Part shown: one piece after another, positions 12,172 through 52,130 of the stretch
Layout of the letters: each line of letters opens with the position of its first letter
Numbering within the stretch: the stretch's first letter is position 1
Notes under the pieces: generated by a model
What the model was told of the DNA's origin: nothing
Databases searched by the model: none
The model's input: only the letters and a program-made list of their open reading frames with translations
Translations under genes and position numbers: made by a program
IMG/VR virus record: IMGVR_UViG_3300032223_002232
Location: 1 to 64,000 of that record
Strand: one strand, 5' to 3'
Origin: a virus
DNA length: 64,000 nucleotides

Positions 12172-15100
12172 ATGCCAGCTTATAACAAAACTTCTTATTA
12201 TAATAATAATCCAATAACGGAAGTATTTGGTTCACAAACTACTCTTTATTATTGTAGGGATAAAATTTCTTTTTGGGGTGATAATTCATATAATCAATTA
12301 TACAATACAAGTAATTTAAATTTAATAAATGCTGCAAGTATAGCAGCTTATGATCACACCGTTGTAGCATTACCTGATGGTGAGGTTGTAGCTTGGGGTA
12401 AAAATGACAAAGGTCAATGTAATGTTCCTAATGGTTTAAGAAATGTTAAAAGTGTATCTGCTGGTAAAGCTTTTACTGTCGCTCTTAAAGAGAATGGAAC
12501 TGTTGTCGCTTGGGGTGATAATAGTTCAGGACAATGTAATATACCAAGTACCGCCACATCTGTTGTAGCTATAGCTGCTGGTGATAACCATGTTTTAGCT
12601 ATAAAAAATGACTTATCTATTATAGCTTGGGGTTCTAATTTCTTTGGTCAAAGTTCAATTCCATCTAATATAGGTAAAATTGCAAATATTGCTGCTGGTG
12701 GAGATAATTCCGCTGTTTTATTAATGGATGGTAGTGTTTATATTTGGGGAAGTAATATAAATGGTAATTTAAATAAACCAGCAAATTTAACTAATGTTTC
12801 TACATTATCAATAAAAAGTAGTCATGTTCTTGCACTTAAAAATGATGGAACTATTGTTGCTTGGGGTAATAACAATTATGGTCAAATTACAATACCAGAT
12901 ACATTAACAGGAAACAAGATAAGAAAAATATCTGCTGGTGTAAATTTTAGTTTAGTTTTAGATTATGCAGGTATTATAACTGCTTGGGGTGATTCAAGTA
13001 AATCACAAACAATTTTACCAAATTTATATCAAGTTGAAAATATTGCAGCTGGTCACAGTCATAGTATTGCATCTTGGTGCTCAATAGTACCGACACCAAC
13101 ACCTACAAAAACGGTTACACCTACACCAATTACACCAACTCCAACTAATACACAAACACTAACTCCTACAGTAACACCAAGTGTAACGCCTTCAATGAGG
13201 GTAACCAATACACCGAGACCTACTATAAATTTAACAAGAACACCAACACCGACACCTACAGCAACACCAATAACAACAGTAAGTGTAACACCAACAAAGA
13301 AACCTCACCCATCACCATTTAGAAAACCTGTTGCTCCTCCACCAGCTAATCAATTTATTCCACCAAAACCAACACAAGAGGCGTTATATTTTCAAAATCC
13401 ATCGCAGACACCAACAAGAACATTAACAAAAACTCCTACTTGTACACCGACATTTACACCTACTGTTACGCCGACTTCAGGTACACCAACGCCTACACCA
13501 ACAGTAACAAAAACAAAACCCACACCCACACCTACACCAACAGTAACGACATCTGTTGGTTCTTATAAGAATTGTGCATATCCAGCATTTAATGGTTTCC
13601 AAAATACTAATAATACATATACAACAATATCATTGTACAAATGGGATAGTTGTATAAGCACTGGTAATCAGAATGATGGTATAATAGATAGTTCAAAATA
13701 TTTTACATCACCCGGTTGGAATGTTGATGGTCATGTAACTATTGTTGCTATAACAAAAACAACAGGAATTGTTCGTGAATCAACTGGAACATTCTTATCA
13801 AAATATCCAATAGGATCAACACAAATAATTTCAAATGTAATAAATTTAAATAACTACCCAAATGTGGTTTCAGATACAAGAAGAAATGGTTCTGGTAACA
13901 TTTACTGTAATAATACTGATGGTAGTATGAATTTTGTATATTTAACAAATGATTATTCTAAAAACTGTGTGCCTTTCGGTGTTAATGCACCAGTTTATGG
14001 TGTATACCATGATGCAGTTGATAACACAATATATGCCGTTGGTTCATTCACAACAGTTAATAGTTTAAATAGAAATCAAGTTGCAAGGTTTAATTATAAT
14101 GGTGTATATGATCAATCATTTGACGTAAATCAAGGTTATAGTGGTACACCGTTTGACTACCCACCAAATGATATAAGAAGAATTAATGATTCATTGTATA
14201 TATCAGCATTGCAAAAATTTGGAACAGTTGGATCTAATGTATTAACATTCAGATCACAAAATGGTTTAGCTAGTAATTTACATAAAGTTGATTTAAATGG
14301 CGTTAGAGATATAAACTTTTTACCATTTACATTTACATTTAACAATAATAATTTTATTGATTATGTAAGTGTACCATCTCAAAATCTTTTAATATTAGTA
14401 AACTCAAGAGCTATTTCATTTAGAAATATAAACAATAATTCACAGTTATCTACAACTATAAATGGAACAGATAGTATACAGGGTATAGTTAAACCTAATG
14501 AAGTAAACCCATCGACTGTTTATATTTTACAAAAGATAAATGGTGGTATTAGTGCAACACAAACACCAAATGCAATTAAAGCTATTAATACAACAACTGC
14601 TTCGATTGATACTAGTATAAACAATTATATAGGTAAGGGTATGATATCAACCGATAATGGTGGATTTGCATTTGGTGCATTATCACCTCAACATGATTTC
14701 ATGGTTCTACAAAGATCTTATAGTGATAATAACATGACACCGGGTTATTGGAATGGTGGAACTGTTAACTCACCTGTTTTATCAAAAATATATACATCTA
14801 ATTTTTCAATACCAAACAATACAATTATATGGAATACATATAATCATATTGTGGGTGCTAATGCTAATAATGGAAATATGTTGATAGATAGTAATGGTAG
14901 AATTTATTTAGTATTACTAAATGAAACTAATTATATTTTCAGTAATATCAATGTTCAACCATATTCAATTATAAGATTATTCCCAGATGGTACATATGAC
15001 GGTTCTTTCAATGTAATGGCTAATTTAAATCCTAGTGGTAAAATCTATAATGCTGCATTGATAAGTGATTTTGAATTAATAGTTTGTGGTGACTTCACAT

Positions 15101-15174
15101 CTTATGCAGGTAATGCATCTAAACAGTATATTGTAAAAATTGACACTAATGGCAATCCTATAAATATAATGTAA
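12172..15174 (+). CDS. RCC1/BLIP-II repeat propeller + Pro/Thr linker + delta-60-like propeller; putative receptor-binding protein
   Basis: Repeated (I/V)(A/S)AG..H..AL..DG.(V/I).AWG.N..GQ; PTPT linker at 13090-13550; C-terminal RLFPDGTYDGSFN and CGDFTSY. Confidence 0.85.
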   Translation: MPAYNKTSYYNNNPITEVFGSQTTLYYCRDKISFWGDNSYNQLYNTSNLNLINAASIAAYDHTVVALPDGEVVAWGKNDKGQCNVPNGLRNVKSVSAGKAFTVALKENGTVVAWGDNSSGQCNIPSTATSVVAIAAGDNHVLAIKNDLSIIAWGSNFFGQSSIPSNIGKIANIAAGGDNSAVLLMDGSVYIWGSNINGNLNKPANLTNVSTLSIKSSHVLALKNDGTIVAWGNNNYGQITIPDTLTGNKIRKISAGVNFSLVLDYAGIITAWGDSSKSQTILPNLYQVENIAAGHSHSIASWCSIVPTPTPTKTVTPTPITPTPTNTQTLTPTVTPSVTPSMRVTNTPRPTINLTRTPTPTPTATPITTVSVTPTKKPHPSPFRKPVAPPPANQFIPPKPTQEALYFQNPSQTPTRTLTKTPTCTPTFTPTVTPTSGTPTPTPTVTKTKPTPTPTPTVTTSVGSYKNCAYPAFNGFQNTNNTYTTISLYKWDSCISTGNQNDGIIDSSKYFTSPGWNVDGHVTIVAITKTTGIVRESTGTFLSKYPIGSTQIISNVINLNNYPNVVSDTRRNGSGNIYCNNTDGSMNFVYLTNDYSKNCVPFGVNAPVYGVYHDAVDNTIYAVGSFTTVNSLNRNQVARFNYNGVYDQSFDVNQGYSGTPFDYPPNDIRRINDSLYISALQKFGTVGSNVLTFRSQNGLASNLHKVDLNGVRDINFLPFTFTFNNNNFIDYVSVPSQNLLILVNSRAISFRNINNNSQLSTTINGTDSIQGIVKPNEVNPSTVYILQKINGGISATQTPNAIKAINTTTASIDTSINNYIGKGMISTDNGGFAFGALSPQHDFMVLQRSYSDNNMTPGYWNGGTVNSPVLSKIYTSNFSIPNNTIIWNTYNHIVGANANNGNMLIDSNGRIYLVLLNETNYIFSNINVQPYSIIRLFPDGTYDGSFNVMANLNPSGKIYNAALISDFELIVCGDFTSYAGNASKQYIVKIDTNGNPINIM
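15159..15166 (+). promoter_or_regulatory. T4-type late promoter TATAAATA for the GT17-like gene
   Basis: Exact TATAAATA, 12 nt before ATG 15179. Confidence 0.6.
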
Positions 15175-15178
15175 TCAA

Positions 15179-15949
15179 ATGAAAAATTTATATGATTTTT
15201 TTATATTTAGTAATGAAAAGAAAATGTTAAATTTTAGATTTCATGAGTTAAATGAAGTTGTTGACAAATTTATAATAGTAGAATCAGACAAAACATTCAC
15301 AGGTGTTCATAAAGGTTTAAATTTTAATATTGATGATTATTCAAAATTTAAAGATAAAATAATATATAAACCATTCATAGCTGATTTTAGTAGTTATGCT
15401 TGGACTAATGAATATCAACAAAGAAGATATTTAAAATCAGGATATGATGATTTACCAATTGGTAATGATGATTTAATTGTTTTATCTGATGTTGATGAGA
15501 TACCAGATCCATTAGTTTTAAATAGATTTAAAAATGAAAATTTTAAAGGTATTAGAACATTTTATCATGATTTGTATTATAATAACTTTAGAACAAAAAA
15601 GATACATAAATGGTCAGGTTCTTTAGTAATTGATAATGAAACATTTATAAAAAATTATAATTGTGATTTTGAATCTCTCAGAGGTAATAGAGATAATATT
15701 GAAAAAATAGGTGTTGAAAAAAGAGAAGGTGGTTGGCACTTATCTTATTTTGGTGATGTTGATTTTATTATTAATAAAATTAAAAGCTTTTCACACCAAG
15801 AATTTAATACACCAGAACATACAGATCCTGAGAAAATTATGAAATGTATAAATGAGGGTAAAGATCTATTACAACGTAGTGACAATGATACAATTGTATT
15901 AGATACACTTGATCCATATTTACCAAAACATATCAACTTATTAGATTAA
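15179..15949 (+). CDS. GT17-like (MGAT3/GnT-III family) beta-1,4-GlcNAc transferase
   Basis: RFHEL..VVDKFIIVES..TFTG, W.NE..QR, SDVDEIP, GGWHLSYF and KIKSFSHQE motifs. Confidence 0.85.
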   Translation: MKNLYDFFIFSNEKKMLNFRFHELNEVVDKFIIVESDKTFTGVHKGLNFNIDDYSKFKDKIIYKPFIADFSSYAWTNEYQQRRYLKSGYDDLPIGNDDLIVLSDVDEIPDPLVLNRFKNENFKGIRTFYHDLYYNNFRTKKIHKWSGSLVIDNETFIKNYNCDFESLRGNRDNIEKIGVEKREGGWHLSYFGDVDFIINKIKSFSHQEFNTPEHTDPEKIMKCINEGKDLLQRSDNDTIVLDTLDPYLPKHINLLD

Positions 15950-18291
15950 GATTCTTTTCTTTCATCAGCTTTATAGAATAAAAATCTATCGTGTTCTGTT
16001 GGTGTTGCTAACAATATACCGGGATATATATTACCCTTTAATGTTTCTTGATAGATATAAGACATCCATGTTTGTTCAAATGGGTGCGCCCATTTAGTAG
16101 TTAAAAACATCTTCTTATTACCTTCCTTAGATACAACTTGAGGCCAGTTACAATAATAAATTTCACCTGTCGCATAAGGTATACCCTTATATGATTTAAT
16201 ATTATTATATTTTAGGAATGGTTCGTTGTTAGTATCATTGGTTGATTTTCTTGGCTTTTCTGGAAAAAACTTTTCCCTAACATCTTGTGGTATATTATGC
16301 CAAGACCATTGTCTTGTATTATCACCAAATAATTCACTAAAGTTGAATTTTAAAAAGTCAAAGTCTTCATTCCATGCAATATTGAGTATTGTGTTATATA
16401 GATCAGGTATCTTTCTTCTGAATCCATTTTTACAATATTCTTCATTACCAAAATAAAAGAACATATCATCTTCAAAGAACATATGATAATCAAAACCATT
16501 TTCCTCTGCATGTTCTGCTATAAATTGTCTACCACCACAGATGCCAAGATTATCTTTCATCTTTAAATGTGTGAAACCGTAGTATTCACATAGACTTTTA
16601 TACTCACTATAAGTTCCACTGTCAGTTGAATTATCTATTAAAAACTTTTTTGGTTTATCTAAAAAGTTATTATCATATTCTTTAAATGATCTACATAGTT
16701 TTGAGAACTGTTCTGGGAAATTAAACGTCAATACATATAATGCCACATTATCTGTATTATGTGAATTTATTTCACCCCTGCCATTAAGAGTTTTTTCCAT
16801 CTTAGGTTCTAATGATTTATTCTTTAAATTTTCAAAGAATAAACTTAATAACCCATTACCATCAATTTCAAAGTATTGGAATAATTCAGGATACTTGTAA
16901 AGCATTAAAGTGAATAAACTCTCCTCAGTCCCCATATAACCGTTTTTAAGGGAATCTGACATCAAACTATAGTAAACCTCATTAGCCTTTGATATAGAGG
17001 CTTTAGGACCACCAAAAATGCCACCTCTGGCAACTTTGTTAACATTAGCACCAGCATATGAGCACATGGCATTATATTCAAACCCATGAATCTCTTTATC
17101 TGTTTCATATGGAAAACACACGAAACTAAACTTCTTGAAATAATCTTTAATATTATCAATTACATTATCTTTCCAGAAATAACCTTCGTGAACTGTATTA
17201 GTTAATGCGCCATCAATCCAAACTAAATGACTTGAATCAAACGGATCTAGTATTGCCGCATCGTTCAATAAGAACATTTTAGACATAACCAATGGATTAT
17301 ACATCTCAAGCTTCGCTTGTGTGCTTTCGGTTAACCAACCAACTTGGTTGTACCATTCTGGATTATTTCTTATTTTCTGAATATCATTGTAAAATTCATT
17401 ACCCTTAAACCAATCAAGTTCTCTTACTAATATTGATGTATTTGTTAATGATCTATGTTGTAATACAAAATCTTTATATTGTTCTTCAATATAAATTATC
17501 ATATTGCAATCAGTTTTCATTAACTTGGCTAAATTATCAAGATAATGTTCAAATGATCTCTTCCAACCTTCAGTCAATTCGTTTCTTTTAATATCCCATA
17601 TACCAGTAACTATGGTTGTTTCATTTTTCTTTGTCTTAAATGTTTTAATATTTTCAACGGATGCATTTTTTCTATAAAGACCTAATTGATCACATATCTC
17701 AACTACATCATATTCAAGACCTTTCTGTTTAAGAAAATCTGAAATAGCTGCTCTGACTCCGGGTAAGTCGTGCCTATCGTAATCATGAAAGAATATATAA
17801 CCGCCATCTACAACCTTATCAAATACTTTGACTAGACTATCGTAGATTGAATCATAAAAATCACCATCTAAAAATGCAAATGATATTTTTTCTGGTATTT
17901 TATATTCTGGTATATCTTTGAACCAATCTTTATGTATTATAGGTAAAGGTAAATTATTTTGTTTAAAATTTGAAATTAAAACATCTTCTGTTGTTTTTAA
18001 AGTCCCAGCCCTCCAGCCACTATCCTTTTCCCAATTTGATAATTCTGGTAAACCATCAAATGAATCATAAACATACAACTTTTTATTTGATCCAGTTTCA
18101 GTTATAGTCTTCATTAGATATTTGCTGGATTCGCCAACATAACATCCAAGTTCTACTACATCACCCTCAATATTATTATCAATTACATCTAGTAATGATC
18201 TCACAAGAACTTCAACCTGTGATCCACATATAATAGAAGAATCTACTCTTATATTGTTAAAATTTAAAATTTCGTTTAACTTAGTATTCAT
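15946..18291 (-). CDS. Fusion: TylF/MycF-type sugar O-methyltransferase + HtrL/YibB-like domain + GT-A domain
   Basis: GDVVELGCYVG, YDSFDGLP, FLDGDFYDS, FHDY; TTIVTGIWDI, SKMFLL, VWIDG, MGTEE; IDNS, NLGICGGRQ, FFEDDM. Confidence 0.8.
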   Translation of the reverse strand: MNTKLNEILNFNNIRVDSSIICGSQVEVLVRSLLDVIDNNIEGDVVELGCYVGESSKYLMKTITETGSNKKLYVYDSFDGLPELSNWEKDSGWRAGTLKTTEDVLISNFKQNNLPLPIIHKDWFKDIPEYKIPEKISFAFLDGDFYDSIYDSLVKVFDKVVDGGYIFFHDYDRHDLPGVRAAISDFLKQKGLEYDVVEICDQLGLYRKNASVENIKTFKTKKNETTIVTGIWDIKRNELTEGWKRSFEHYLDNLAKLMKTDCNMIIYIEEQYKDFVLQHRSLTNTSILVRELDWFKGNEFYNDIQKIRNNPEWYNQVGWLTESTQAKLEMYNPLVMSKMFLLNDAAILDPFDSSHLVWIDGALTNTVHEGYFWKDNVIDNIKDYFKKFSFVCFPYETDKEIHGFEYNAMCSYAGANVNKVARGGIFGGPKASISKANEVYYSLMSDSLKNGYMGTEESLFTLMLYKYPELFQYFEIDGNGLLSLFFENLKNKSLEPKMEKTLNGRGEINSHNTDNVALYVLTFNFPEQFSKLCRSFKEYDNNFLDKPKKFLIDNSTDSGTYSEYKSLCEYYGFTHLKMKDNLGICGGRQFIAEHAEENGFDYHMFFEDDMFFYFGNEEYCKNGFRRKIPDLYNTILNIAWNEDFDFLKFNFSELFGDNTRQWSWHNIPQDVREKFFPEKPRKSTNDTNNEPFLKYNNIKSYKGIPYATGEIYYCNWPQVVSKEGNKKMFLTTKWAHPFEQTWMSYIYQETLKGNIYPGILLATPTEHDRFLFYKADERKES

Positions 18292-18294
18292 ATA

Positions 18295-19827
18295 TTACAG
18301 ATAACCTTTAGCATAAAATTCATTGTTATTATCATCTACATTTTCAGATCTATAAATACCACAACCAGAAACCTCATTTGGTATAACGTGCAATATTGGA
18401 AATGAATGAACTCTTGATTCAAAATTATCTTCTTTGTAATAATTCATAACAATTTTTGATATGTTATATTTTCCTAAATATGATGAAATTACAATATCGT
18501 CACTCCATGATTTATTAACAAAATCTGTAAAGAAATCATCATTAAAGAACTTTCTCTTATAAGATGCTGATTTATAACCTTCTATTATTTTAACTCTTGT
18601 ATCTTTAGACATGGTAGCACATAAATGACAAGATCCGTCTAATGCACCAATGCCAGCAAATCCCAAAGCTGTATCGGGGTAAATTGTTTGCTTCTTTAAG
18701 TGATACTCAATAAATCCATCTTCGTATATTAAATCATCATCAACAGTTATTATAGTTGTCTCTGGATCAGAGATTCTTTTAATAGTGGGAGCAATTTTTG
18801 TAATTGAACCGTAATCATGACATCTAAAAATTTTAAGTTTATCGTTTTCTTTAACGTAATCGTTTAACCAATCTGGTATTACATACTCTTCACTAGTTTT
18901 ATGATTTATATATGGTATATTAAAATGTATTTCGTAATTAGGGTAACTAAGACTCAATAAGTTCTCTATAACAGGTTTAACACCATGACCATCTCTTTCA
19001 TCACTTAATCTATTTGGGGTTGTGGATAAAGATAATATGACATTCGGAAATTCGGTTAGTTCAAAAGACATATCAATGTCTTTACTATCATCTTTATATT
19101 CAAGTTCTTTTTTAAAATCATATTCTTCGTTATTAGTTTCTACATTAGTAGTGTTGATGAATAATGTTTGGCGACCATTGAATAATGGTATGTAGCCTTC
19201 ATTTATCAGATAAGGTGAAAGTAAATTATCTTTACCACCACCAACAGTATTAAAATCTGTATCATCAATTAATATTAAATGTATATCAGAAAGCTTTTCC
19301 CTTGCAGCTTGAAATGCTTCTAAATGCTTTTCTGCATATTCTGGTGTTCCCACATCCCATCCATCCAGATATAGTATATCAATCTTGCCATCAAAGTCTT
19401 TTAAAAATTGAATACCATCCATTGGTATATTAATATTCAAATTATTAGGCTTTTCTTTACCAATTGATTTATAATAATTTAAAAGATTGCCTACACAAGC
19501 TTCGTTAACATCTACGGTATGAACATCAAATCCACATTCGGTAAAAAATAATGTACTATGACCATCACAACAACAAGCAGGTGACACTAAAGCATTTCTT
19601 TCGCTATCTAAAAAATAATCAATACATTCTTTTTTAAGTTCAAATCTATTTGTACCAATTTCTACAAGTGTTTTGAGATTCAACATCTTTGCAATCTCAA
19701 CCATTTTCCTAATATAGGGTGCTGGTTTTGATCTCTTATTGATATGATCATCAAGTGAAAGATTATCATCATACCAATATTTTTTATCAATTCTAAAATC
19801 AGTTAAAAGTTTATATATTCGTTTCAT
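18295..19827 (-). CDS. Fusion: class I SAM methyltransferase + GT-A glycosyltransferase (start likely 19827)
   Basis: VEIGT, IDILYLDG, ILIDDT; then SLSTTPNR, DYGSITK, ITVDDD, SDDIVIS. Confidence 0.75.
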   Translation of the reverse strand: MKRIYKLLTDFRIDKKYWYDDNLSLDDHINKRSKPAPYIRKMVEIAKMLNLKTLVEIGTNRFELKKECIDYFLDSERNALVSPACCCDGHSTLFFTECGFDVHTVDVNEACVGNLLNYYKSIGKEKPNNLNINIPMDGIQFLKDFDGKIDILYLDGWDVGTPEYAEKHLEAFQAAREKLSDIHLILIDDTDFNTVGGGKDNLLSPYLINEGYIPLFNGRQTLFINTTNVETNNEEYDFKKELEYKDDSKDIDMSFELTEFPNVILSLSTTPNRLSDERDGHGVKPVIENLLSLSYPNYEIHFNIPYINHKTSEEYVIPDWLNDYVKENDKLKIFRCHDYGSITKIAPTIKRISDPETTIITVDDDLIYEDGFIEYHLKKQTIYPDTALGFAGIGALDGSCHLCATMSKDTRVKIIEGYKSASYKRKFFNDDFFTDFVNKSWSDDIVISSYLGKYNISKIVMNYYKEDNFESRVHSFPILHVIPNEVSGCGIYRSENVDDNNNEFYAKGYL

Positions 19828-19828
19828 T

Positions 19829-20620
19829 TTAACTTTCCGTTGGATGTCCGATTTTATGACCATTTGCTGTAATAGCTTTACCTAAAATGAAGTGATTCCA
19901 ACCTATATCATGCGGTTTATAACCTGCTACAAAGCCAGATACACCAATTTCAAATCCTTCAGCCCATGTACCATAACAATAACCTTTAGCTATAAGATAA
20001 TCATGAAACCATTTAAATTGATCGTAAAACTTCTTTAACTTTTCACCTGTCTGTAGAAAAACTAACAAATATTCTGCTGGTAATCTCGCATCATCCCAAT
20101 CATGGTTTTCTATATCCAAATCATAATTGAATATTTTATGCCAAAAAATACCATGCTCTTTATTATTCTTAGTTTTATAATCATCCAAGAATCCACGCCA
20201 TGTATATGTCATTCTAGGTCCAAGGAAATCAATACCATCATCAAGCATGTTTTTAAAATATGTTTGAACTTCATCTTCGTCCCACCAATCCAATGAGTTA
20301 TCACAATCAGTCCATATTACATAAGCATCATCCTTATCTAATAATTGTCTTAAACAAAGATACCTCATATTAAAATTAAAATCAGAAATATAACTATCTT
20401 TTGAGTTAAATGGGATTCTAATTTGCAACGAATCTCTGTCAATTTCATCAATCAAAATTCTTTCATTTTCTCCAAAAACGTCAGTTATTGATTTCTTACA
20501 ATCTGTTGTTATTGCAAAATAATGATTTGTTTTTTCTAAAACTTCTTTTATAAGTTTACAAGCATAATCTTTAGTGTAATTTTCACCTAAACTTAATGTT
20601 GTAAAATAGATTTTTTTCAT
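19829..20620 (-). CDS. Putative GT-A glycosyltransferase
   Basis: FTTLSLG..Y N-terminus, ITTD and a DxD motif (WTDCD); lies within the GT cluster; TAAATA at 20627-20632. Confidence 0.6.
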   Translation of the reverse strand: MKKIYFTTLSLGENYTKDYACKLIKEVLEKTNHYFAITTDCKKSITDVFGENERILIDEIDRDSLQIRIPFNSKDSYISDFNFNMRYLCLRQLLDKDDAYVIWTDCDNSLDWWDEDEVQTYFKNMLDDGIDFLGPRMTYTWRGFLDDYKTKNNKEHGIFWHKIFNYDLDIENHDWDDARLPAEYLLVFLQTGEKLKKFYDQFKWFHDYLIAKGYCYGTWAEGFEIGVSGFVAGYKPHDIGWNHFILGKAITANGHKIGHPTES

Positions 20621-20629
20621 ATGATATAT

Positions 20630-22171
20630 TTAGAAAGATAGCTTATTTATCAAATCTAAATCTTTAAATATTTTGAATAAAAGATTACAATTTGCATTTA
20701 TAGAACCATTTTCTATATACCAATTATAACCGTTATTTGATACAAAGTCCAATAGTTCGTCATTTTTTATTATTTCATCATATTTGTTTTTTATGATATT
20801 CATTTGTAATATTGGATCTAGATCAATTTCAAACCCAATGTAATGGTAATCTTGTATAAGACTGTTATAAAATTTTTGATTAAGTATCGGTCTAAATAAT
20901 ACAGAACCAGCTGCTAAAATTTCTATATCTCTATTGCAAATCTCACCAGCACCATTTAAAGATAAGCAAATTTTACTTTCTGTCAACTCTTTATAATAAT
21001 TTGAATTTGGAAATACTTTCTTATCTGTAATATTAAAAACTCCTAATTGCGAAAGGTCTAATCTTTGCCCATATAAATAACCTCGGAATATCAATTCTTC
21101 ATTTGTTTTTTCACTGAATGGTAATCTGTTTTTAGCTAAATCATCAAATTCTGACGAATAAGCCAAATATGAAAATGGTATAGTTTCCATATCATTATAG
21201 ACACCAGCGGATGTTATTATACCTACGAGGTTTTCTGTATCCCAACCTAAACCTTTATATAGTAATTCCTCGGCTCTATCCCAATAAGAAATTGCTACAT
21301 ACTTCTTTGTATGTTTATTTCTAATCGTCATTATATGAGGTGAATGTATTCCAGCAGGTTCATGTACATTAATAGGTGTTATGTACTTTACGTTATGTTC
21401 TTTAGAGAAAATCTTATAGAATTCATCAAAAACAATGGTAACAGACCATTTAGTACCATGTGGTTTTTGGTATGTTATTTCATAATCGTGATTTTCGGGT
21501 GGTTTTGGTTTGGCTTTTATACTTTTTAGATTATGGATTATATCCATTAACTTAGCATCTTTAATCCTGTCATTATCAACTTTACATCTATAATGATAAT
21601 GTTCTGAATCAATTAATGTGGGGTCTTCTAAATGATGATCACCACATTCAAATCTAAATCCTTCTGATAAACTTATATTAATGTTATTTAAAATATCCGC
21701 AACGGCAACATCATCGGGTAAATTGAAATTCCATAATGTTTCATTATCTACTATATATTCTACTAAATCTCTACTAAGTGTATATCCACACCCTGACCCA
21801 AAATGAATATCTTCATGTCTTTGTCCTAACATGGCACTATAGTAACCTTTAAGTGGTTTATCTTTTAAGAAGTTTATTAAATTCTCAATCTTTACATATG
21901 ATGATGAATTAGTCCTAAAAACAAAATCAAAATCAAAATTTTCTTTAATGTATTTAAACATCAAATATGTTTTATTATTAATTTGACTCCACCCCTCACC
22001 AGTTGGGAAAAATAAACGATCTCCTTCTGATATCTTATCTAAACTCCCATAATAAAATACTACATCAATTCCAGCATTTTTAGCATCTATAAGCCATGTT
22101 TCTCTAATTTTATTTTCTAAAGTTATATAAGGCTCTTGATCTAACGATAAAACCGAAATTAAAATCTTCAT
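20630..22171 (-). CDS. Two-domain glycosyltransferase: GT31-like N-terminal domain + GT-B-like C-terminal domain
   Basis: IRETW, FVFRTNSSSY, FGSGCGYTLSRD, PDDVAV; C-terminal FRG, SKICLSLNG.GE.CNRDIE. Confidence 0.7.
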   Translation of the reverse strand: MKILISVLSLDQEPYITLENKIRETWLIDAKNAGIDVVFYYGSLDKISEGDRLFFPTGEGWSQINNKTYLMFKYIKENFDFDFVFRTNSSSYVKIENLINFLKDKPLKGYYSAMLGQRHEDIHFGSGCGYTLSRDLVEYIVDNETLWNFNLPDDVAVADILNNINISLSEGFRFECGDHHLEDPTLIDSEHYHYRCKVDNDRIKDAKLMDIIHNLKSIKAKPKPPENHDYEITYQKPHGTKWSVTIVFDEFYKIFSKEHNVKYITPINVHEPAGIHSPHIMTIRNKHTKKYVAISYWDRAEELLYKGLGWDTENLVGIITSAGVYNDMETIPFSYLAYSSEFDDLAKNRLPFSEKTNEELIFRGYLYGQRLDLSQLGVFNITDKKVFPNSNYYKELTESKICLSLNGAGEICNRDIEILAAGSVLFRPILNQKFYNSLIQDYHYIGFEIDLDPILQMNIIKNKYDEIIKNDELLDFVSNNGYNWYIENGSINANCNLLFKIFKDLDLINKLSF

Positions 22172-22180
22172 AACTAAAAC

Positions 22181-23065
22181 TTACATCATTATGATGTTTT
22201 TAATGTCGTTTGCTAATTTATTTTTAGTTTCTAAATACCAAGTAATAACTTTATTCTGTAATGCTGAATAATCTGAATCACTCATTTCACTGTAGTTTTT
22301 TATTTCACTCCAAGATTCAACTATAGGTATAGGATGACCCTCACCCCAAATCTCATTTATATATTTTTCGCCAACTTCGGGATAGTTTCTTAAAATTGGT
22401 ATTGCTCCCCATTCTAAACATTCCATAAGTCTAAATGAATCTGGATGATTAAACCCCTTTGGGCATGGAGCGAATCTAGTTTTTTTGTAAATCTCAATAC
22501 ATTCAGATGTTGATAAAGCTGTTGTGCAGTTCCAACCATGTGTTTTATGTAAGAATATTTTTTCTGGATTTAAAGCCATCATATGTATGAAAACATCATT
22601 TCTATCAGCTTTAGGGCATCCTATAAATGAAAAATCATATTTCTTATTATAAGAATTTGAATAATCATTGTTATTATTTAAATAACCACTCTTTACACCT
22701 AGTGGTAAAGTTTTAACATTAGTTTGTGTTATTAATGGATCATAATAATTTCTAAAAACATATTTAGCTTTAGAATAATAACTACAATCATGATTCAAAT
22801 CTTCGTTTGAATATTGTAAAAGAAAGAAATTATATCCCCTCTTTTCATATTCATTTAAATAGTTAAGAAAGTCATTTGATTGCCCACGATTATTATTTGA
22901 ATATATAATCAGTGCATTATCTAATATTGTTGAATATGTTTTATTATCAAATATCCTATTTTGATTAAATTCTTTAAATAAGATATCTACAGTATAATCA
23001 AACTCAAATGTTGTTTGGTCACCATCTAAGGTTTGCCATATCATGTTTAAAACTGGTTTATCCAT
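22181..23065 (-). CDS. Exostosin-like (GT47-like) glycosyltransferase
   Basis: YDFSFIG and FAPCPKG....DSFRLMECLEWGAIPI. Confidence 0.75.
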   Translation of the reverse strand: MDKPVLNMIWQTLDGDQTTFEFDYTVDILFKEFNQNRIFDNKTYSTILDNALIIYSNNNRGQSNDFLNYLNEYEKRGYNFFLLQYSNEDLNHDCSYYSKAKYVFRNYYDPLITQTNVKTLPLGVKSGYLNNNNDYSNSYNKKYDFSFIGCPKADRNDVFIHMMALNPEKIFLHKTHGWNCTTALSTSECIEIYKKTRFAPCPKGFNHPDSFRLMECLEWGAIPILRNYPEVGEKYINEIWGEGHPIPIVESWSEIKNYSEMSDSDYSALQNKVITWYLETKNKLANDIKNIIMM

Positions 23066-23066
23066 T

Positions 23067-35161: not shown

Positions 35162-35167
35162 TGTTTT

Positions 35168-35593: not shown

Positions 35594-35607
35594 ATTATAT
35601 TTATATT

Positions 35608-36030: not shown

Positions 36031-36066
36031 ATATTTGTATTTAATATTTACCCTATTATTTGCAAA

Positions 36067-39000: not shown

Positions 39001-42000
39001 TGTAGGAGTTGGTGTATTTGTAGGAGTTACAGTTGGTGTATTTGTAGGAGTTACGGTAGCAGAATTTGTAGGTGTTAATGAATTGGTTGGTGTAACTGTT
39101 TGAGTAGTTGTTGGTGTTATTGTTGGTGTAATTGTCGCTGTTACTGTTGGTGTGGATGTTGCCGTTGGTGATGATGTTGCGCCCGGAGTTACGGAAACAG
39201 TAGGAGTTATTGTTGTTGTTGGTGTGATCGTTGCTGAATTTGTTATTGTTGGTGTAATTGTCGGCGTAGCTGTAATAGTAGGTGTTATAGTCGGCGTTGG
39301 TGTTATTGTATTGGTTGGTGTTCTTGTGGGGGTTACAGTAGTTGTAACAGTTGATGTAATTGTTGGAGTGATTGATGGCGTATTTGTAATTGTTGCAGTA
39401 ACAGATGGTGTTGGTGTACTTGTTATTGTTGATGTTATTGTTGGGGTTGGGGTTGCCGTTGGTGTAGGAGATCCAAGCGGTGTTCTTGTGACTGTTATAG
39501 TTGGCGTAACTGTGTTTGTTGGTGTTATCGTTGCAGTCTGTGTTACTGTTGGTGTAACAGTTACAGTATTTGTAGGTGTGAGTGTTGGTGTTACGGAACT
39601 TGTTGGTGTATTGGTTGGTGTTATTGTTGATGTTACAGTTGGTGTTATAGTTGCAGTAACTGTAGTTGTGGGTGTAACTGTAGGTGTTGATGATGCCGCT
39701 GGTGTATTTGTAGGTGTGACGGTTGCTGTAACTGTTGATGTTACAGTTGGTGTGTTTGTTGGACTATTTGTAGGAGTAATAGTCTGAGTATTTGTTTGTG
39801 TAACAGTAGGTGTATTTGTAGATGTTGGTGTATTTGTTGGTGTTATAGTAGGAGTTTTTGTAACTGTAGCTGTTTGTGTATTTGTAGGAGTAATTGTTGG
39901 TGTAACCGTTACAGAAACAGTTGGTGTATTTGTAGGAGTTGAGGATGCTGCTGGTGTATTTGTCGGTGTTACAGTTGGTGTGTTTGTTGGACTTACAGTT
40001 GGTGTGTTTGTAGGTGTAACTGTTTGACTATTTGTCGGTGTATTTGTAGGAGTGTTTGTAGGAGTTACAGTTTGTGTTTTTGTAACTGTAGCTGTGACTG
40101 TAGGTGTGATAGTAGGTGTTACTGTATTTGTAGGAGTATTTGTAGGAGTTACGGTTGGAGAGTTTGTGGGTGTATTTGTTGGCGTAACTGTTACAGATGC
40201 TGTTGGAGTATTTGTAGGTGTTGATGATGCCGCTGGTGTTTGAGATTGTGTTACTGTTACAGTAACGGTTGGTGATACTGTTGGTGTAATTGTTGCAGTA
40301 ACAGATGGTGTAGGTGTTATCGTCACACTTGTTGTAGGTGTGATTGTTGGAGTATTTGTAGGTGTGAATGTAGGCGTTACAGTTACGGTATTTGTAGGAG
40401 TTACCGTTGCTGTAGTTGTTGGAGTAATTGTTGGTGTAACCGTTACAGATACCGTTGGAGTAATTGTTGGAGTTGAAGATGCCGCTGGTGTGTTTGTAGG
40501 AGTATTGGTCTGTGTATTTGTAGGAGTATTTGTAGGGGTGTTTGTAGGAGTTACAGTTTGTGTTTTTGTAATTGTTGGAGTAACTGTTACAGTGTTTGTT
40601 GGTGTTACTGATTTTGTTGGTGTTACAGTTTGTGTAACGGTTACAGTATTTGTTGGTGTTACGGTAGGAGTTACTGTTGATGTTGGTGTAATTGTCGCTG
40701 TTACTGTTGGTGTTACAGTTGGTGTTGAAGATGCAGCTGGTGTGTTCGTAGGTGTTACAGTAACAGTCGATGTATTTGTTGGAGTTGCCGTTGATGTTAC
40801 AGTTGGAGTTGGAGTGTTTGTAGGTGTAACTGTTGGAGTAACAGTTGGAGTTACTGTTGTTGTTTTTGTAACCGTAACCGTAGGTGTAATAGTTGCTGTA
40901 TTTGTAGGAGTATTTGTTGGTGTAACTGTTATTGTAACAGTTGGAGTTACTGATGCAGCTGGTGTTTGTGTTTGTGTAACAGTTGGTGTAATTGTTGGAG
41001 TGATTGTTGGTGTCTTTGTAACCGTAACTGTAGGTGTAGCTGTGCGAGTTGTTGTAGTGGTTATAGTTGGCGATACTGTTGGGGTAATCGTCGGTGTTAA
41101 TGTTGGCGTTCTTGTTGGTGTAGCAGTAGGCTTTGGTGTTTGTTCAAAAACAGGAACATCAGAATTGGCTAATTTAATTGTTGTAGCACCTCCACTATAA
41201 TAATTTAAAGTGTATTTAGAGTTACTATCTAATGGTGAATATAATGAATAAAATGCATTATATGGTGCTATTTGAAATGGTGCACAATAATTGCTAAGTG
41301 TTGAATTACTATTATCAGCTTTATTGTTAACTAATTGATTTTTAAATGTACTACTGAATATATATCCTGAAATATCTATTGTAGAATTATTTAAGAAAAC
41401 ATAATTTGGATTATTTTGATTACTATAATTTAAACTAATTACATATGAATAATCATATGTAGTTGATTTATTAGAAGTTAAATTAAATGTCCAAGTTGTA
41501 AGACCAAATCTATATGGCGTTACTATATTAAAAGATCTTTCAAAATTTAAAAATTGGAAATTTGTATTATTATAATTTAAAAATAAACGTCTATAAGTTT
41601 GATTATTTGAATCATCAATTGCAAGTGAACTTAATGTAAAATTAGTGCCTCTAAAAATTTGATCATTTAAAGTTAAATCGGTATTGGCTCCAATATTATA
41701 AAAAGATCTGGCTGTAAAATTACCATCAAATATTATTGATGCATTTAAATTACTACCATTACCAATTTCGGTATTTGTATTATAATCTAAAAATATAATT
41801 TTATTAAAATTACCAATGTTTTCTGTATTAATAAAACCTCTACTATGATAGGTCGGATTTACTCTATCAGAATTACCAATAATAGACAATCCGTAACCGG
41901 GATAATAATCAGGACCAGATGCACCTTGTATTAATTTCCAAGCTGTAGTATTCCAAGTTGCTGTACTTAAAAAGTATGGATCAGTTTGATTAATACCACA

Positions 42001-43668
42001 AACATATAATTTTGCATTTGAATATGCATCAATAGCACCATATGCATAGGTAGATGTACCAAGCATTGCTATTGTTATGTTTTGGATATTGGTTACGCCA
42101 GAATAAAAAATTAAAGCTGTTGAATCAAGAGCATTTGTATCAAACTCAAAACATAAATTTTTTAAATTTAAAGTTGTTTTTGGATGATGTGAAAATGAAA
42201 TTTGCCTTGCAAAAATTGGGTTGTTTCCATTTGAATAACAATCAATCCAATTTGATGCATTTGTTCCAAAATCTGAAAATTTTAAATTGTTATCAAAACT
42301 AATATACGTTCTAGTAGTTATTTTTCTTGGTGATATATTAAAAGGTTTTTTATCGGTATATACTGGAATAAAATTATTAGTTAAAAGGTTTGTTATGAGT
42401 TCTCCAATTTCATACATACCCAAAATTTCTACAGATAAGAAATCTAAATTAGATAAACTGAAATATGAAAATCCACCAGTTAAAGGAACACCTTTGTTTT
42501 TAGCCCAAATAAAATCACCACCTTTAATTCCTTGTGCATATAAATCTGGTTGATTAGCCTTCATCCAGTTTTCACTGAAATAAGCTGATGAAAGATTTCC
42601 ATTAAATGTACAACCAGAATAAGTTCCATCGTTTTTTGAATTATCTTCACCACAAACTAAATCATCATATATTAAAATTTTTAAAGAATTGCCAAATAGA
42701 TTATTATTTGAAACATAATCTAATACAGCTTTTATATTTTTAAAGAATGGTTTTGCTACACCAAAATCATCATTATGATCATGATCCCAAGCTGAACTTG
42801 TTTGTGATCTCACTACACTAATATTATCAGTAGATTGACTATCAGATGGTTTTACACCAAAAATATAATCGTTTTGATTTACTAGTGATAATTTATTTGC
42901 ATAATTATATTTTAAATTTGAAGATGTATCTAATGCAATATTAGCATATAGTTTATCACCATATAAATTTCCACCAATTGTTAAATTTTGATCTACATTT
43001 ATATCATTAGCTGTTAATTTATTAAATTTAGTAAATTGCGCAGAAACATAAGATGTATTTGTATTATTGTTTAGATATAAATTATTAACATATAAATTAT
43101 TTGATTGAATTTCAAAATTAATAGAACTTAAAATTTGATTATGAGTTAAAGACGTACTAGTTATATTGTTATATATTGTAGAAAGTAAATTTATAGTTGT
43201 GGTATTAATTGTATCACCAATTAATGTATTAAATGTTGCATTTGTATTTGAAGATATATTAGGTACAAAAGTTATACCGTTTGGATATCTTACATTTAAA
43301 CTTAAATTACCAACAAGATTATTACCTGTAATGGATGGTATATATGCATCTATAATTCCAACACTACCATTAATATCAAAATTAAAAATTGGATCTACTT
43401 TATTATAACCTATTTTATTGTTTTTAAGAATTAATGTATCATTAGATGTGAAAACTCTAGAGTTCTTATAAGATGAACTTATCCCAATTGTTAAGAAATA
43501 ATAAGTCTGTTCAGCTTGTGCAGTAGTATATGATAAAGGTAAACCTAAACAAGGTTCAACTGAATCAAGAGTTATAAACCCATAATTATAGGCATTACTA
43601 TTAATATCCGAAGCCGTTAAAGGCTTAAGAGGAAATAATTGTGTCAATGGAGTTAATGATATATCCAT
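36067..43668 (-). CDS. Giant fibre-like protein: ~840-aa N-terminal domain, ~1250-aa Thr/Pro mucin-like stalk, Gly- and Cys-rich C-terminal head (start likely ATG 43668)
   Basis: N-terminal domain colinear with 43733-46249; continuous TPTVTPTN-type repeats; AAGGGAG just upstream of the ATG. Confidence 0.85.
37430..41140 (-). repeat. Low-complexity coding repeat (TPT[V/N/I])n, including a perfect 3x24-nt tandem repeat at 37466-37537 (TQTPSNPV)
   Basis: Read directly from the sequence; synonymous codons vary between units. Confidence 0.95.
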
Positions 43669-43732
43669 AATCAACTCCCTTAACTTGGCTCATTTTGCCA
43701 TTTTAAAAATATTTTTAATAAAAATGCATTCA

Positions 43733-46249: not shown

Positions 46250-46264
46250 AGGATTACAAACTGA

Positions 46265-46633
46265 TTAGTATGGTGTATTAACTGTTTCTAATATAGATAA
46301 TGTTATATTAATTTTATTATTATTAGCGGCAGATACGATAAAATTATCGTAAGCTTGTAAAACCAATTTATTAACTACGATGTTTACAGTGTCGTTTGGT
46401 GGTAATTGGAATCCTTGGAGTATGCTAATTGATGGTGATGCTTGTACATCCCCACCGGGACTAGCTGTGGTTGATAATGCAGCATTTACTGTTTGTGCTG
46501 TGCTATCAGTATTTGTAGCTAATGCTGAGATTATTATACCTGCTCGTTGGAACGGTGTGGTGTATATCGACGTTGGTGTAGTTGTCACCGCTGTTGATAT
46601 TCTTTTGAAGTAATTTAAGGGTATTTTTGCCAT
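46265..46633 (-). CDS. Small T4-like virion structural protein
   Basis: IYTTP...AGII...ATN, KLVL...D and LSILET pattern; TATAAATA at 46640-46647. Confidence 0.65.
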   Translation of the reverse strand: MAKIPLNYFKRISTAVTTTPTSIYTTPFQRAGIIISALATNTDSTAQTVNAALSTTASPGGDVQASPSISILQGFQLPPNDTVNIVVNKLVLQAYDNFIVSAANNNKINITLSILETVNTPY

Positions 46634-46653
46634 ATTCTATATTTATACTTATT

Positions 46654-48765: not shown

Positions 48766-50433
48766 TTATGCTGTATAAGATCCAGATGAATTAAATGTTA
48801 AAATTGTATTGGAACCATTTGTTGTTACACTTGGAGATCCTGTTGTTATGTTAGAATATCTGGATGTTGGTATTGAAAGTATAACAACACCAGAACCACC
48901 GTCAGCTGGATGTCCACCAGTATTATATGAACCTCCACCCCCACCTCCACCTTTATTGGCTGTTCCGTTCTGTGCAGCACTTGTTTGTGTTCCACCATTA
49001 CCACCTCCACCATTACCACCGTTACCGCTATTTGATCCACTATAGCCACCACCGCCACCGCCACCACCACCGTAATATAACCCTGTTATATTTACTTGTA
49101 AACCATCACCGCCATTTGCACCAATAGCATCCCACAATCCATTGCCTTCTCCGTTACCTCCGTTTTGATTAGAACCAGCACCACCAGCACCACCAACGCC
49201 ATAGGTGTGGGAACCGCCAGTAAAGCCATTTCCGCTATTACCACCTTGTAAACCAGCTGCTCCATTTCCACCTATTGCTGTTAATGTTCCTACGATTGAT
49301 GAATCTTGCCCATTTGTTCCAGTATATGAACCAGCACCACCAGCACCAACAATAATATTATAAATCTGGTTAGCTGTTACATTAATTGTTGAAAAATTAA
49401 CTGCACCAGCACCACCACCATTACCGGGACCGGGAGCACCAGAATAGCAGCCACCTCCACCTGCACCAACTGTTAAATAATTTATATTATATGTTGGATC
49501 ATATGTTGGTGTTGGAGTTAAAGTTGGTGTTGGAGTTAAAGTTGGTGTTGGAGTTAAAGTTGCTGATGGGGTATATGTTGGTGTAACAGTTGATGTTGGA
49601 GTATATGTTGGCGTAACAGTTGATGTTGGAGTATATGTTGGAGTTATAGACGGCGTTGGTGTTGGTGTTAGTGTTGCAGTTGGCGTAATTGTAGGCGTTG
49701 GTGTAGGCGTTGGTGATGGTATATAGTCAAGAATAAATGAACTTGAATTACCAAAAAGAGAAAATGCATTGGTTGTGTTTAATACACCATAAGGTATAAA
49801 TGAATTAATTTCTAATATATCTTTTGTGTTTAAATTGATACTAATTAAACCATTTTGTCCAATATCATTTTTAACAAAAAATGAAATATTAAAAACATTA
49901 GTATCAATATTATATGTTAACTTTGGATCTTCTTTTATGCCATTAGATGATAATAAATTTGTTATAGTATCAAATCCCAAAACTATATATTTTTGAAAAA
50001 TTTGATTTATTTTACCTGTGTTAATATTAAATTCTTTAAAAAATAAACAAAATTTTATATTTTGATTATTATCAATAACTAATGGATTAAATCCACAAAA
50101 ATATACTTTTTGGTTTAACTCATCAAACCAGTAATCAATATTTGTATCTGATAAATTATGATGAAAATCAAATAAACTATGTGGTTTTATAGTATTACCA
50201 TCAAAAACTAATTTTTCAAATATATAACCATTTTTAGTTTGAATAAAAATACTATCATAAAATACATCAAATCTTGTAATAATATTATAATTTAAATCAT
50301 AATAAAAATCAGGATGTAAAAATTCATATTTTAAATAAACAGAAGATAGAATTTCATTAGCAGATTTAACATTATTCTGCACATCTCTTAACCAAAGCTC
50401 TCCGTTGTAATTTATATCATTATAAAAGTTCAT
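48766..50433 (-). CDS. Structural protein with Pro/Thr linker and C-terminal Gly-rich domain (start likely 50433)
   Basis: ATGA overlap with upstream stop; PTPT repeats at ~49500-49722; [10 protein letters not shown]...GGSGVVIL. Confidence 0.8.
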
Positions 50434-52130
50434 GGTGTATATGGTGGATAAATTGAAGTGTAGGATGCTAATGAAGCGGATACAGGCCAACGGTAATATG
50501 TACTGAATAAGTTATATAAGTCGGCATTAACAGCTTGTGATACCGCTAGTGCGAATGTATCGCAAGCATTTTCTATATCTGAACCTGATGTAATATTTAT
50601 TTGTTTAATATTACTCCAAGTGTATAATAAGAATTGATCTCCAAATTTATTATATAAATCAAACATGAATGAAGCAAACATATCAGTACCCTGTAACGAT
50701 AATGCATTTGTTGGTGCTATATTATCATAAACTGTATTCATGAAATTATAAGATGGATCTGCTATATATGTATTAATTAAATTAATTACACCATATTTAA
50801 AATCATTGAATGGTGTACCATTAAATGGTGCGCCGTTTACTCCAGCAGAATCCATAGACATAAATCTCATAAATACCGCAAATCCAGTGGTAACCGTTTC
50901 ACTTGGTGTTGCATCAACTCTTCTTAAACTATCAACCCAGAAATTCCTTCCTAATTCATAGAATAATACTTGATCAAATTGATTATTCAAATTAACACCG
51001 CTATAAAGAGCATCCCATGATGATCTGAGTAATTCAATACCAGTTCTACCTAATTCACCACAACCAGAACCACATGTAGTGTTAACAACACTTACAGGAT
51101 CTTTACCTCTTAAAGTTACAAGTGTTAATGGATATTCACCGATTACTCTATAATAGAAGTCATAAGCTTTATCTAATTTATAGATTATATAATCTATTAC
51201 TGCTCGGTTTACATTTATGTTGGAAGGAATTTGTAAAGCTACATTTCTTCCAAGATAAGCTTTCATGTTGTAATTTACACTATCAAAACTTGTATATAAT
51301 GTATCTATTACTAATGAAGGACCATATGGTAGTGTTGGTGTTGGTGTAACCGTTGGTGTATGAGTGATTGTTGGTGTTATTGATGGAGTTGGTGTCGGTA
51401 TTTGTAATGATCTTGTAACTGTTGGTGTTATAGTTGGTGTTACAGTTGGTGTTGGTTGTATTTGTGGAATTGGGTTTAGATCTGGATTTACTATAGTTGT
51501 TTTTTCGTAAGGTATGATCGTTACTTCATTATTAACATTAGCAGATGTTAATGTTTTAAATTTACTAGTAAATGGATAAATATAGTTATAAGGTTTACTT
51601 AATTTATCAGCTGATATAATTGGTTTTGGTTTTAATTTCCAGTTAACCAAAGACATCAATATATTATTTTCATTTTGAGTTTGGAATGTATAAAGAATTT
51701 TATTGTCAGGTCCAAACATTTTAGTTTTTATTAAATGTATTTCATTGAAGAATTTATCAACACCATAATCCATTGGTGGATTTTTTAAATTTAATAAAAT
51801 TGTAAATGTTACAATATCAGAACTACCAAAAACATAAACATTTACATTAACTACATAAGTTGAAAGACTTAAATCTTTTGAATAAAACTCTTTAGTTTTT
51901 GGGTAATTTCTAGGATCACCTATTTCATTTGAAATTGGTAACCTATTATCTGAACCTAAAACTGGTTTAAATTTTACAATATCAGAAGTACCATCACCCC
52001 AAATATACTCAATCATTCTAATTTTATGAGATAATGATAAAGTTCTTGGGTCTATAGTTAAATCAAAAGGGGCATAATCACTAATAATTTGATTATCAGA
52101 ATTAAGATAAACTGTACGATTATAAACCAT
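50430..52130 (-). CDS. Structural protein: PKD-like N-terminus, Pro/Thr linker, degenerate zincin-like C-terminal domain
   Basis: [10 protein letters not shown]...YIWGDG; TPT linker at ~51330-51455; [10 protein letters not shown]; TAAATA at 52137-52142. Confidence 0.7.

Follow-up and report, generated by a model that had tools for sequence, protein, structure and literature searches.

What does a tailed phage do with a glycosyltransferase of the family that begins mucin-type glycans in protists, encoded amid the genes for its own virion appendages? The question is posed by the first 64 kb of a 169,763-bp IMG/VR record (IMGVR_UViG_3300032223_002232, estimated to be 77% complete), a stretch that we call the window (G+C ~30%) and that derives from an uncultured T4-like lake phage. 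Seven adjacent open reading frames (ORFs), with overlaps or gaps of 0-10 nucleotides (nt), fill positions 15179-24320, and one of them encodes a GT60 enzyme. We propose that this glycosyltransferase (GT) island probably serves a late, cytoplasmic, phage-encoded O-glycosylation of threonine (Thr) in the Thr/proline (Pro) stalks of virion appendages. The proposal is based on protein families and folds, motif conservation, the lack of membrane anchors, operon context, co-occurrence across genomes, gene adjacency and island structure; from these we infer which sugar is donated, which residue accepts it, how the steps are ordered, what glycan results and what the phage gains.

The bulk of the window is a single long minus-strand run of large structural genes, several of which match tail-fibre PHROGs or Gly_rich_2, subtilase, von Willebrand A (VWA) and beta-propeller families in PHROG and Pfam searches. 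A sequence-only reading of this DNA had placed the GT genes inside the structural module, and the tail-fibre PHROG and Pfam matches of the neighbouring genes bear this out.

The GT60 enzyme, its operon and its candidate acceptors

The proposed initiator, at 23067..24320 on the minus strand, matches GT60 (PF11397) with 234 bits against a cut-off of 21 (E 4e-69) and belongs to phrog_24687 (3e-174). We regard it as a putative N-acetylglucosamine (GlcNAc) transferase of the PF11397 family. In an alignment of 40 diverse relatives D92-S-H94, E204-E205 and H229 are invariant, and by analogy with GT27 and GT60 these are the putative catalytic positions, the D-x-H and the downstream His being the presumed GT-A metal-binding motif. 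Sequence searches of the enzyme against solved structures found no meaningful relative. Outside the Pfam model, amino acids (aa) ~300-417 form an extra conserved C-terminal region with a near-invariant W406, possibly a module that binds the acceptor; in many multi-domain relatives the alignment is confined to residues 4-300. The family is abundant in metagenomes, with at least 7,613 clusters at 90% identity (4,501 at 50%). It includes proteins of 1,641-2,461 aa (P0122, P0123 and P0126) in which four GT60 domains are fused to 2-oxoglutarate (2OG)-Fe(II) prolyl-hydroxylase domains, two of them with an AhpC/TSA peroxiredoxin as well, an arrangement that we read as a hydroxylase-glycosyltransferase megaenzyme.

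The only gene that accompanies GT60 across lineages encodes a ~555-aa HtrL-like protein with two GT-A domains, present in at least 50 of 72 GT60 loci and in the cultured phage XacN1 (ORF330, 42% identity). Residues 224-781 of the protein encoded at 15946-18291 are the part conserved with GT60 in this way, and a metagenomic relative (P0172) fuses GT60 and the dual GT-A unit in a single chain. Across the 72 loci the other transferases of the island are variable accessories. The pathway put forward from the sequence alone had not singled out this conserved partner. None of the seven island proteins has a hydrophobic segment or a signal-like N-terminus, and the enzymes are predicted to be soluble and cytoplasmic.

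The island is tightly joined to its surroundings. The GT60 start overlaps the stop of a conserved upstream gene (ATGA), which suggests that the island was appended to an existing late gene; that gene (24317-24778, minus strand) encodes a DUF5856 / phrog_858 protein ('starvation-inducible regulator', Dps-like). From the tail-fibre-like gene that starts at 27946 down to 15946, there are no terminator-like sites between genes and no sizeable gaps. Exact copies of the T4-type late-promoter word TATAAATA stand just before 27946, 35593, 46633 and 48723 and before the plus-strand GT17 gene, the first of them at 27980..27987 on the minus strand, upstream of the tail-fibre-like gene run, and the last at 15159..15166 on the plus strand, 12 nt before the GT17 ATG. 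Late boxes had been claimed before two GT genes; the one at 15159 is exact, whereas the site at 20627 is only a variant word, TAAATATA (20626-20633, minus strand), just upstream of the 19829-20620 gene. Compared with other AT-rich octamers, either word is followed by an ORF start ~2-3 times more often, and across the whole record an ORF start comes within 25 nt after 14 of 39 copies of TAAATATA, as frequently as after TATAAATA (10 of 32). Enrichment of TATAAATA as a word was ruled out (14 copies where 24 were expected), and what is suggestive is only where it stands, ahead of genes; this phage may use a late promoter with a shifted or looser word. With GT genes packed behind fibre genes, late words and no terminators between, the enzymes should be in the cytoplasm when the fibre proteins are made.

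A composition scan of all ORFs finds six proteins of the record that bear Thr/Pro/Ser-rich tracts of 63-1,249 residues, four in the window and two beyond it (85069-86550 and 161289-163232). Together the tracts comprise 2,055 residues (T 42%, P 19%, V 10%, S 7%, N 6%) with ~860 Thr, and each sits between a conserved N-terminal module and a distal domain. The giant tract of 1,249 aa is 46% T, 18% P and 11% V, with no Cys, hardly any charge and 2 acidic residues; Thr occupies every second position, and 86% of its Thr have another Thr at +2, far from chance. The T4-type major capsid gene, which lies beyond the window at 68952-70061, has no such tract.

The earlier observation that at least four structural genes carry Thr/Pro tracts holds, with matching coordinates. 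Inside the island, a 1000-aa RCC1/beta-propeller repeat protein (12172..15174, plus strand) has its tract at aa 294-471 (nt 13051-13584) and is a candidate acceptor. A 2,535-aa protein (36067..43674, minus strand) consists of an 827-aa N-terminal module, the 1,249-aa (Thr-x)n/Pro stalk (nt 37420-41166) and a ~450-aa C-terminal head; the protein encoded at 43733-46249 is a paralogue of its first 827 residues (36% identity, E 2e-136), and one design of module, stalk and head recurs in the pair. Two further minus-strand genes have conserved N-terminal modules: 48766..50490 encodes a 574-aa fibre-like protein whose tract, at aa 244-342 (nt 49465-49761), is followed by a Gly_rich_2 domain at the C-terminus, and 50430..52130 encodes a 566-aa protein in which a distal domain follows the tract at aa 219-281 (nt 51288-51476).

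Co-occurrence of GT60 and Thr/Pro tracts

A complete 211.6-kb relative, G003, with a capsid 84% identical, has neither GT60 nor tracts and offers a natural experiment. Its VWA and DUF5856-like genes overlap (ORFs 16410-21851 and 15942-16415), while in the window they are 13.2 kb apart, which identifies the whole block 11554-24320 as an insertion. This block holds a small protein, the RCC1 tract protein, the GT17 enzyme and six minus-strand GT and methyltransferase genes. A second block, 32312-48723, which includes the giant stalked protein, is likewise missing from G003 by tblastn. The G003 orthologue of 48766-50490 has 242 aa and ends exactly where the tract starts here (residue 244); that of 50430-52130 has 270 aa and aligns to aa 16-190, short of the tract that starts at 219, and has no tract or distal domain. 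GT2 genes are retained in G003, G005 and G007, so transferases in general do not track the tracts. A PF09612 search in the GT60-lacking relatives gave no match, controls included, and is weak evidence of absence, tblastn against G003 being the better test. The fibre region, from which these two large blocks are missing in G003, is highly modular; block 32312-48723 also brings a tail-fibre gene and a subtilase-like (Peptidase_S8) protein of 949 aa.

GT60 relatives with 42-72% identity are encoded at 72 IMG/VR loci, besides one weak giant-virus match (32%, L075). A tract ORF lies within 10 kb of GT60 in 49 of the 72, and in at least 14 a tract gene directly precedes GT60 on the same strand; in their globular parts these tract proteins are unrelated to those of the window, and what they share is the tract itself. 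In two related phages (L014:7562-9958 and L026:8054-9910) a proprotein-convertase P-domain forms the end of the tract protein encoded directly upstream of GT60, and the distal heads on stalks vary widely among phages.

Whole records were scanned with a degenerate TPTxTPTxTPT DNA pattern, for which the reversed pattern, used as a control, gave ~0 matches. Tracts are present in 23 of 25 large GT60-positive records, with 5-255 matches each. A set of 19 records gathered by capsid similarity contains 16 without GT60, 14 of which have zero tract matches, including three complete genomes of 211-230 kb; the two tract-bearing exceptions are fragments, estimated to be 10-14% complete. Among cultured phages, GT60 occurs in only 4 of 50,697 records, all from one clade of Xanthomonas and Stenotrophomonas jumbo phages, with 179 tract matches in XacN1, 141 in Xoo-sp13 and 71 in CM1. 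The nearest GT60-lacking relatives RsoM2USA, XbC2, Serratia BF, 121Q and Vibrio 2.275.O have 0 matches. A megablast search of the GT island against cultured phages gave no match.

Pooled, tracts occur in 29 of 32 GT60-positive records and 2 of 21 GT60-lacking relatives (Fisher p = 2e-9), or in 6/6 against 0/7 when only complete genomes are counted (p = 6e-4). At least three kinds of Gp23-type phage are among the carriers, as are five complete phages that lack a capsid gene of the Gp23 type. Co-occurrence of GT60 and tracts among phages, which the sequence-only reading had named as a check and whose lack it gave as grounds for refutation, is therefore positive in several unrelated lineages. In the reverse direction, of 46 records selected solely by an exact tract pattern of four units, 18 carry GT60 (13 of the 20 that are at least 90 kb long), against 4 of the 50,697 cultured phage records. 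The GT60-tract link is one-way, an asymmetry expected of an enzyme and its substrate.

Tract-rich records that lack GT60 include G049 (behind L194; 970 matches), G048 (L184; 269), G060 (L225; 126) and G080 (L224; 119); G048, G060 and G049 are also without the dual GT-A protein, and G048 and G060 without GT2. A relation between tract length and GT60 presence was ruled out, as G049 and G048 are both very tract-rich. The stalks of such records are either unmodified or otherwise modified, for example by another initiator.

The proposed pathway, its alternatives and its precedents

In the pathway that we propose, the soluble GT60 enzyme would draw on the host pool of uridine diphosphate (UDP) sugars, by family analogy UDP-GlcNAc, in a Mn2+-dependent reaction through its DxH...H motif, and would put the first sugar on Thr, and on some Ser, of the tracts during late fibre-protein synthesis. 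The dual GT-A protein (aa 224-781 of 15946-18291) would extend this primer, the variable extra transferases (GT17-like, GT31-like plus GT-B, RXYLT1_C-like, GT8-like and GT2-like) would add further residues, and the TylF-type methyltransferase, probably with a second one, would O-methylate sugars. The outcome, on tracts that are intrinsically disordered, would be mucin-like bottle-brush stalks, the longest spanning ~300-400 nm if extended, and each would hold a distal head away from the conserved virion-anchoring module. Expected gains are stiffness, solubility and protease resistance; roles of the host-mimicry type are speculation. We also considered that GT60 primes hundreds of Thr on stalks of up to 1,250 residues and that the dual GT-A protein is a co-polymerase that lays a repeating disaccharide on each primer; many environmental tailed phages would then have mucin- or proteoglycan-like appendages, a phage glycocalyx made wholly in the bacterial cytoplasm, an extension that we regard as unlikely.

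The cultured carrier XacN1 encodes GT60 as ORF334 (48% identity) and the dual GT-A protein as ORF330, and its Thr/Pro tract ORFs are 174, 180, 190, 232-237, 325 and 384. XacN1 virions contain at least two Schiff-stained glycoproteins, whose bands the authors did not assign to proteins, and two annotated phage GTs were proposed as their makers, one of which is the GT60 homologue ORF334 (Yoshikawa et al. 2018, PMC5852040). That paper discusses neither the tracts nor the GT60 family nor ORF330. XacN1 thus resembles our phage in its GT60, dual GT-A partner, many tract ORFs and Schiff-positive virions, and differs in that neither bands nor acceptors were identified. The same core module is found in four cultured phages, XacN1, Xoo-sp13, CM1 and RAS14, and proteomics of XacN1 are public (PXD008065). 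ORF384 of XacN1 (AP018399.1 272200-280671), a 2,823-aa protein annotated as a glycerophosphoryl diester phosphodiesterase with many Thr/Pro tract matches, may be an enzyme displayed on a stalk.

The core idea of the sequence-only reading, a GT60-initiated pathway with Thr/Pro virion stalks as acceptors, is supported by the co-occurrence, the gene adjacency, the joint absence in G003 and the Schiff-positive virions of XacN1; its extender roles were too specific, and tracts also occur without GT60. Several points weigh against glycosylation of the stalks, both those given here and those that favour the alternatives below. Four tract-rich genomes that are at least 90% complete lack GT60, the dual GT-A protein and GT2 (G048 with 269 matches, G060 with 126, G054 with 41 and G045 with 30), which indicates that stalks are viable unmodified and that glycosylation does not follow from tracts by themselves. 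Relatedness among the records, many of them fragments, means that the Fisher p-values overstate their independence. The late-promoter words are modest evidence, and the Schiff-positive bands of XacN1 are a hint at most. The system that we favour is predicted from genes and comparisons, and its glycan and enzyme activities are putative.

Could the island instead act on the host? It might remodel host envelope glycans (lipopolysaccharide (LPS) core, O-antigen or capsule) against superinfection or progeny re-adsorption, the stalks being unmodified spacers. The HtrL/YibB family comes from the E. coli LPS-core cluster, LPS-core transferases are likewise soluble and cytoplasmic, and stalks occur without any detected GT; a jumbo-phage overview reads the GT clusters of cyanophages as host-surface modifiers (PMC7824862). 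We nevertheless judge this account unlikely. It leaves unexplained why, in unrelated phages and hosts, GT60 hardly ever occurs unaccompanied by tracts, why tract genes adjoin it and why island and stalks were gained jointly. GT60 is moreover a polypeptide-acting family, the island genes lie in a late structural operon and not among early genes, and GT60-lacking relatives keep other GT2 genes without having tracts. The timing also speaks against a role in hypermodifying phage DNA to evade restriction, since DNA modification is an early or middle function and the operon is a late fibre operon. T4-like phages classically glucosylate their DNA, DNA glucosyltransferases are among the GT-B fold matches of the 513-aa island protein (20630..22171), and ~50 residues of the second GT-A domain of the 15946-18291 protein weakly resemble TAGT and beta-glucosyl-hydroxymethylcytosine (HMC) glucosyltransferases (E 2e-4 and 1.5e-5). 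These last matches are short and below the Pfam cut-off, however, GT60, GT17, GT31-like and RXYLT1-like enzymes are glycoprotein families, and the tract link would go unexplained; we consider DNA modification highly improbable.

Another alternative keeps the virion as the target and moves the sugar elsewhere, to capsid or tail-tube termini or to hydroxyproline formed by a hydroxylase of the host or one that escaped detection. In close relatives of this GT60 the chain also contains 2OG-Fe(II) prolyl-hydroxylase domains, so the family can serve hydroxyproline. The founding member of GT60 reportedly modifies hydroxyproline, as attributed to West et al., and a single hydroxyproline of Skp1 that receives GlcNAc is the alternative target known for the family. 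Mycobacteriophage glycans are located on the C-termini of capsid and tail-tube subunits, according to the part of PMC12619734 that relates the work of Freeman et al. (2023, Cell Host Microbe). Against this, we found no PF13640 prolyl hydroxylase in this record (~77% complete), XacN1 or four complete carriers, and no PF13759 protein in this record, which favours Thr over hydroxyproline. The association is moreover with Thr/Pro tracts and not with capsid type, the carriers having different capsid families, and we think glycosylation away from the tract Thr quite unlikely. Pro is also abundant in the tracts, and a hydroxyproline variant would hit the same stalks; whether the residue is Thr, which we favour, or hydroxyproline, the target would not change.

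If this is right, the system is a virus-encoded virion glycosylation with a mucin-type initiator. To our knowledge, a few mycobacteriophages are the only phages whose particles have proven protein glycosylation, which is otherwise considered rare; virion glycosylation by virus-encoded enzymes is also proven for giant viruses. In mycobacteriophages, as proposed here, phage transferases modify the phage's own structural proteins in the bacterial cytoplasm. That system involves other GT families, other hosts and short C-terminal acceptors in contrast to kilo-residue mucin-like appendage stalks, and it was proven by mass spectrometry, whereas ours is predicted from genes and comparisons. Giant viruses (chlorovirus capsid glycans; Mimivirus fibrils, with R699 and collagen-type enzymes) likewise decorate surface fibres by means of multi-GT clusters and methyltransferases, and the dual GT-A protein has Mimivirus R699 among its best structural matches. 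Their hosts are eukaryotic and their linkages and acceptors are different, the only direct link being the GT60 match on the giant-virus contig L075.

The nearest precedents for the initiating step are in protists. Characterised GT60 enzymes of the T. cruzi and Dictyostelium Golgi form GlcNAc-alpha-O-Thr on Thr-rich mucins (PMC9472816, PMC3769586), and T. cruzi gp72 has a PTVTPT-type domain (PMC3630849). The protist enzymes (TcOGNT1/2 and Gnt2) share PF11397 and the conserved D-x-H and His motifs with the phage protein, and their acceptors are Thr-rich, Pro-containing mucin-like domains, where other transferases go on to lengthen the chain from the first sugar (PMC9472816, PMC3769586). They are Golgi type II membrane proteins of the secretory pathway, whereas the phage enzyme, known from its gene, is predicted to be soluble and cytoplasmic and has the extra C-terminal region. 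The Skp1 pathway of Dictyostelium and Toxoplasma (PhyA, the GT60 enzyme Gnt1 and extending GTs) offers a soluble cytoplasmic GT60 initiator followed by stepwise soluble transferases, and the fusion of metagenomic relatives of the phage GT60 to prolyl hydroxylase domains is a further likeness. That pathway modifies one hydroxyproline on one protein; the phage would modify hundreds of repeat Thr, with no hydroxylase in the six genomes checked. For the extension step, LARGE1, PmHS2, K4CP and LH3/COLGALT1 likewise have two tandem GT-A domains per chain, a likeness at the level of the fold only (template modelling (TM) score ~0.26 over the whole chain, 8-12% identity) that makes a polymerase role predicted at most. 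In full-text literature searches no paper connected GT60 or PF11397 with phages or with Thr/Pro stalks.

Were stalk glycosylation true, a protist mucin-type pathway would operate in the bacterial cytoplasm under phage control. The system would be widespread, across several phage lineages, with appendages that can exceed the virion in length, and would give a new view of how environmental phages adsorb, how sticky and antigenic their particles are and how they resist proteases and grazing. It would also supply a soluble, bacterially expressed toolkit for mucin-like glycoproteins.

Other enzymes of the island and its edge

The sequence-only count of about nine GT-like domains and two methyltransferases is reproduced, although one methyltransferase and one GT rest on leads. 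The domains are GT17, HtrL-like GT-A and a second GT-A, GT2-like, GT8-like, GT31-like, GT-B, RXYLT1_C-like and GT60, with one firm and one probable methyltransferase; Pfam names five of the seven proteins. It had further been held that GT17, GT31 and GT47 enzymes extend the chain and that TylF caps it. The GT17 and TylF families are found, their roles being assigned by family analogy; GT31 is weak, and any membership of GT47 is tentative, the exostosin-like signals being the RXYLT1_C match (31 bits against a cut-off of 27) and EXT1-EXT2 among many tied GT-B matches (Z 13.6). A search for an epimerase of the short-chain dehydrogenase/reductase type acting on nucleotide sugars found none in the record, which is ~77% complete.

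The 781-aa protein at 15946..18291 (minus strand) has three domains, a TylF methyltransferase and two GT-As. Residues 23-206 match TylF-type sugar O-methyltransferases (PF05711, 92 bits against a cut-off of 23) and resemble the solved enzymes NovP (4.7e-13) and MycF (4e-8), which marks this domain as a putative sugar O-methyltransferase. An HtrL_YibB-like GT-A follows at aa ~224-480, and the second GT-A, at aa ~515-781, contains an invariant FFEDDM. The AlphaFold model of aa 224-781 (predicted local distance difference test score, pLDDT, 87) has two tandem GT-A domains, and the best PDB matches of this region are LH3, Mimivirus R699, heparosan synthase 2, LARGE1, COLGALT1 and chondroitin polymerase (E 1e-10 to 1e-7).

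Next to it, the two-domain protein at 18295..19863 (minus strand) joins an N-terminal methyltransferase-like half, an Atlas lead only, to a C-terminal GT2-like GT-A that matches the GT-A domain of heparosan synthase (profile, 1.8e-7); its true start is probably Met13 (nt 19827). The gene at 19829..20620 (minus strand) encodes a 263-aa GT-A-like nucleotide-sugar transferase with a GT8/Nucleotid_trans-like Atlas lead and an invariant DxD, and a sequence search of its family against solved structures gave nothing meaningful. In the 513-aa protein at 20630..22171 (minus strand), a weak GT31/C1GalT1-like N-terminal domain precedes a C-terminal domain of GT-B fold. The GT31 assignment (Galactosyl_T, PF01762; E 1e-6, 28.8 bits against a cut-off of 23) has no single stretch that passes and aligns only aa 35-107, and the best solved relative is C1GalT1 (5.8e-5). 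The whole model is poor (pLDDT 60), with low confidence in the N-terminal part, so that only the GT-B domain is interpretable (aa 227-513; VIA Z 14.6 to POGLUT2, GlgM and many ties).

Two genes of the island have no relatives beside GT60 in the 72 loci. One encodes the 294-aa RXYLT1_C-like protein at 22181..23065 (minus strand; PF24785, E 2e-7). The other is the GT17-like gene at 15179..15949 (plus strand; PF04724, E 1e-29, 104 bits against a cut-off of 26; no membrane segment), whose absence from those loci makes GT17 a variable accessory.

At the outer edge of the island, a plus-strand gene at 6943-11541 encodes a 1,532-aa protein with VWA domains, kept in G003 at 41% identity; the DUF5856 gene at the opposite edge is conserved there too. 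The 12.8-kb block 11554-24320 opens with the gene for a small protein (11554..12162, plus strand) that has a weak phage tail-tip C-terminal match.

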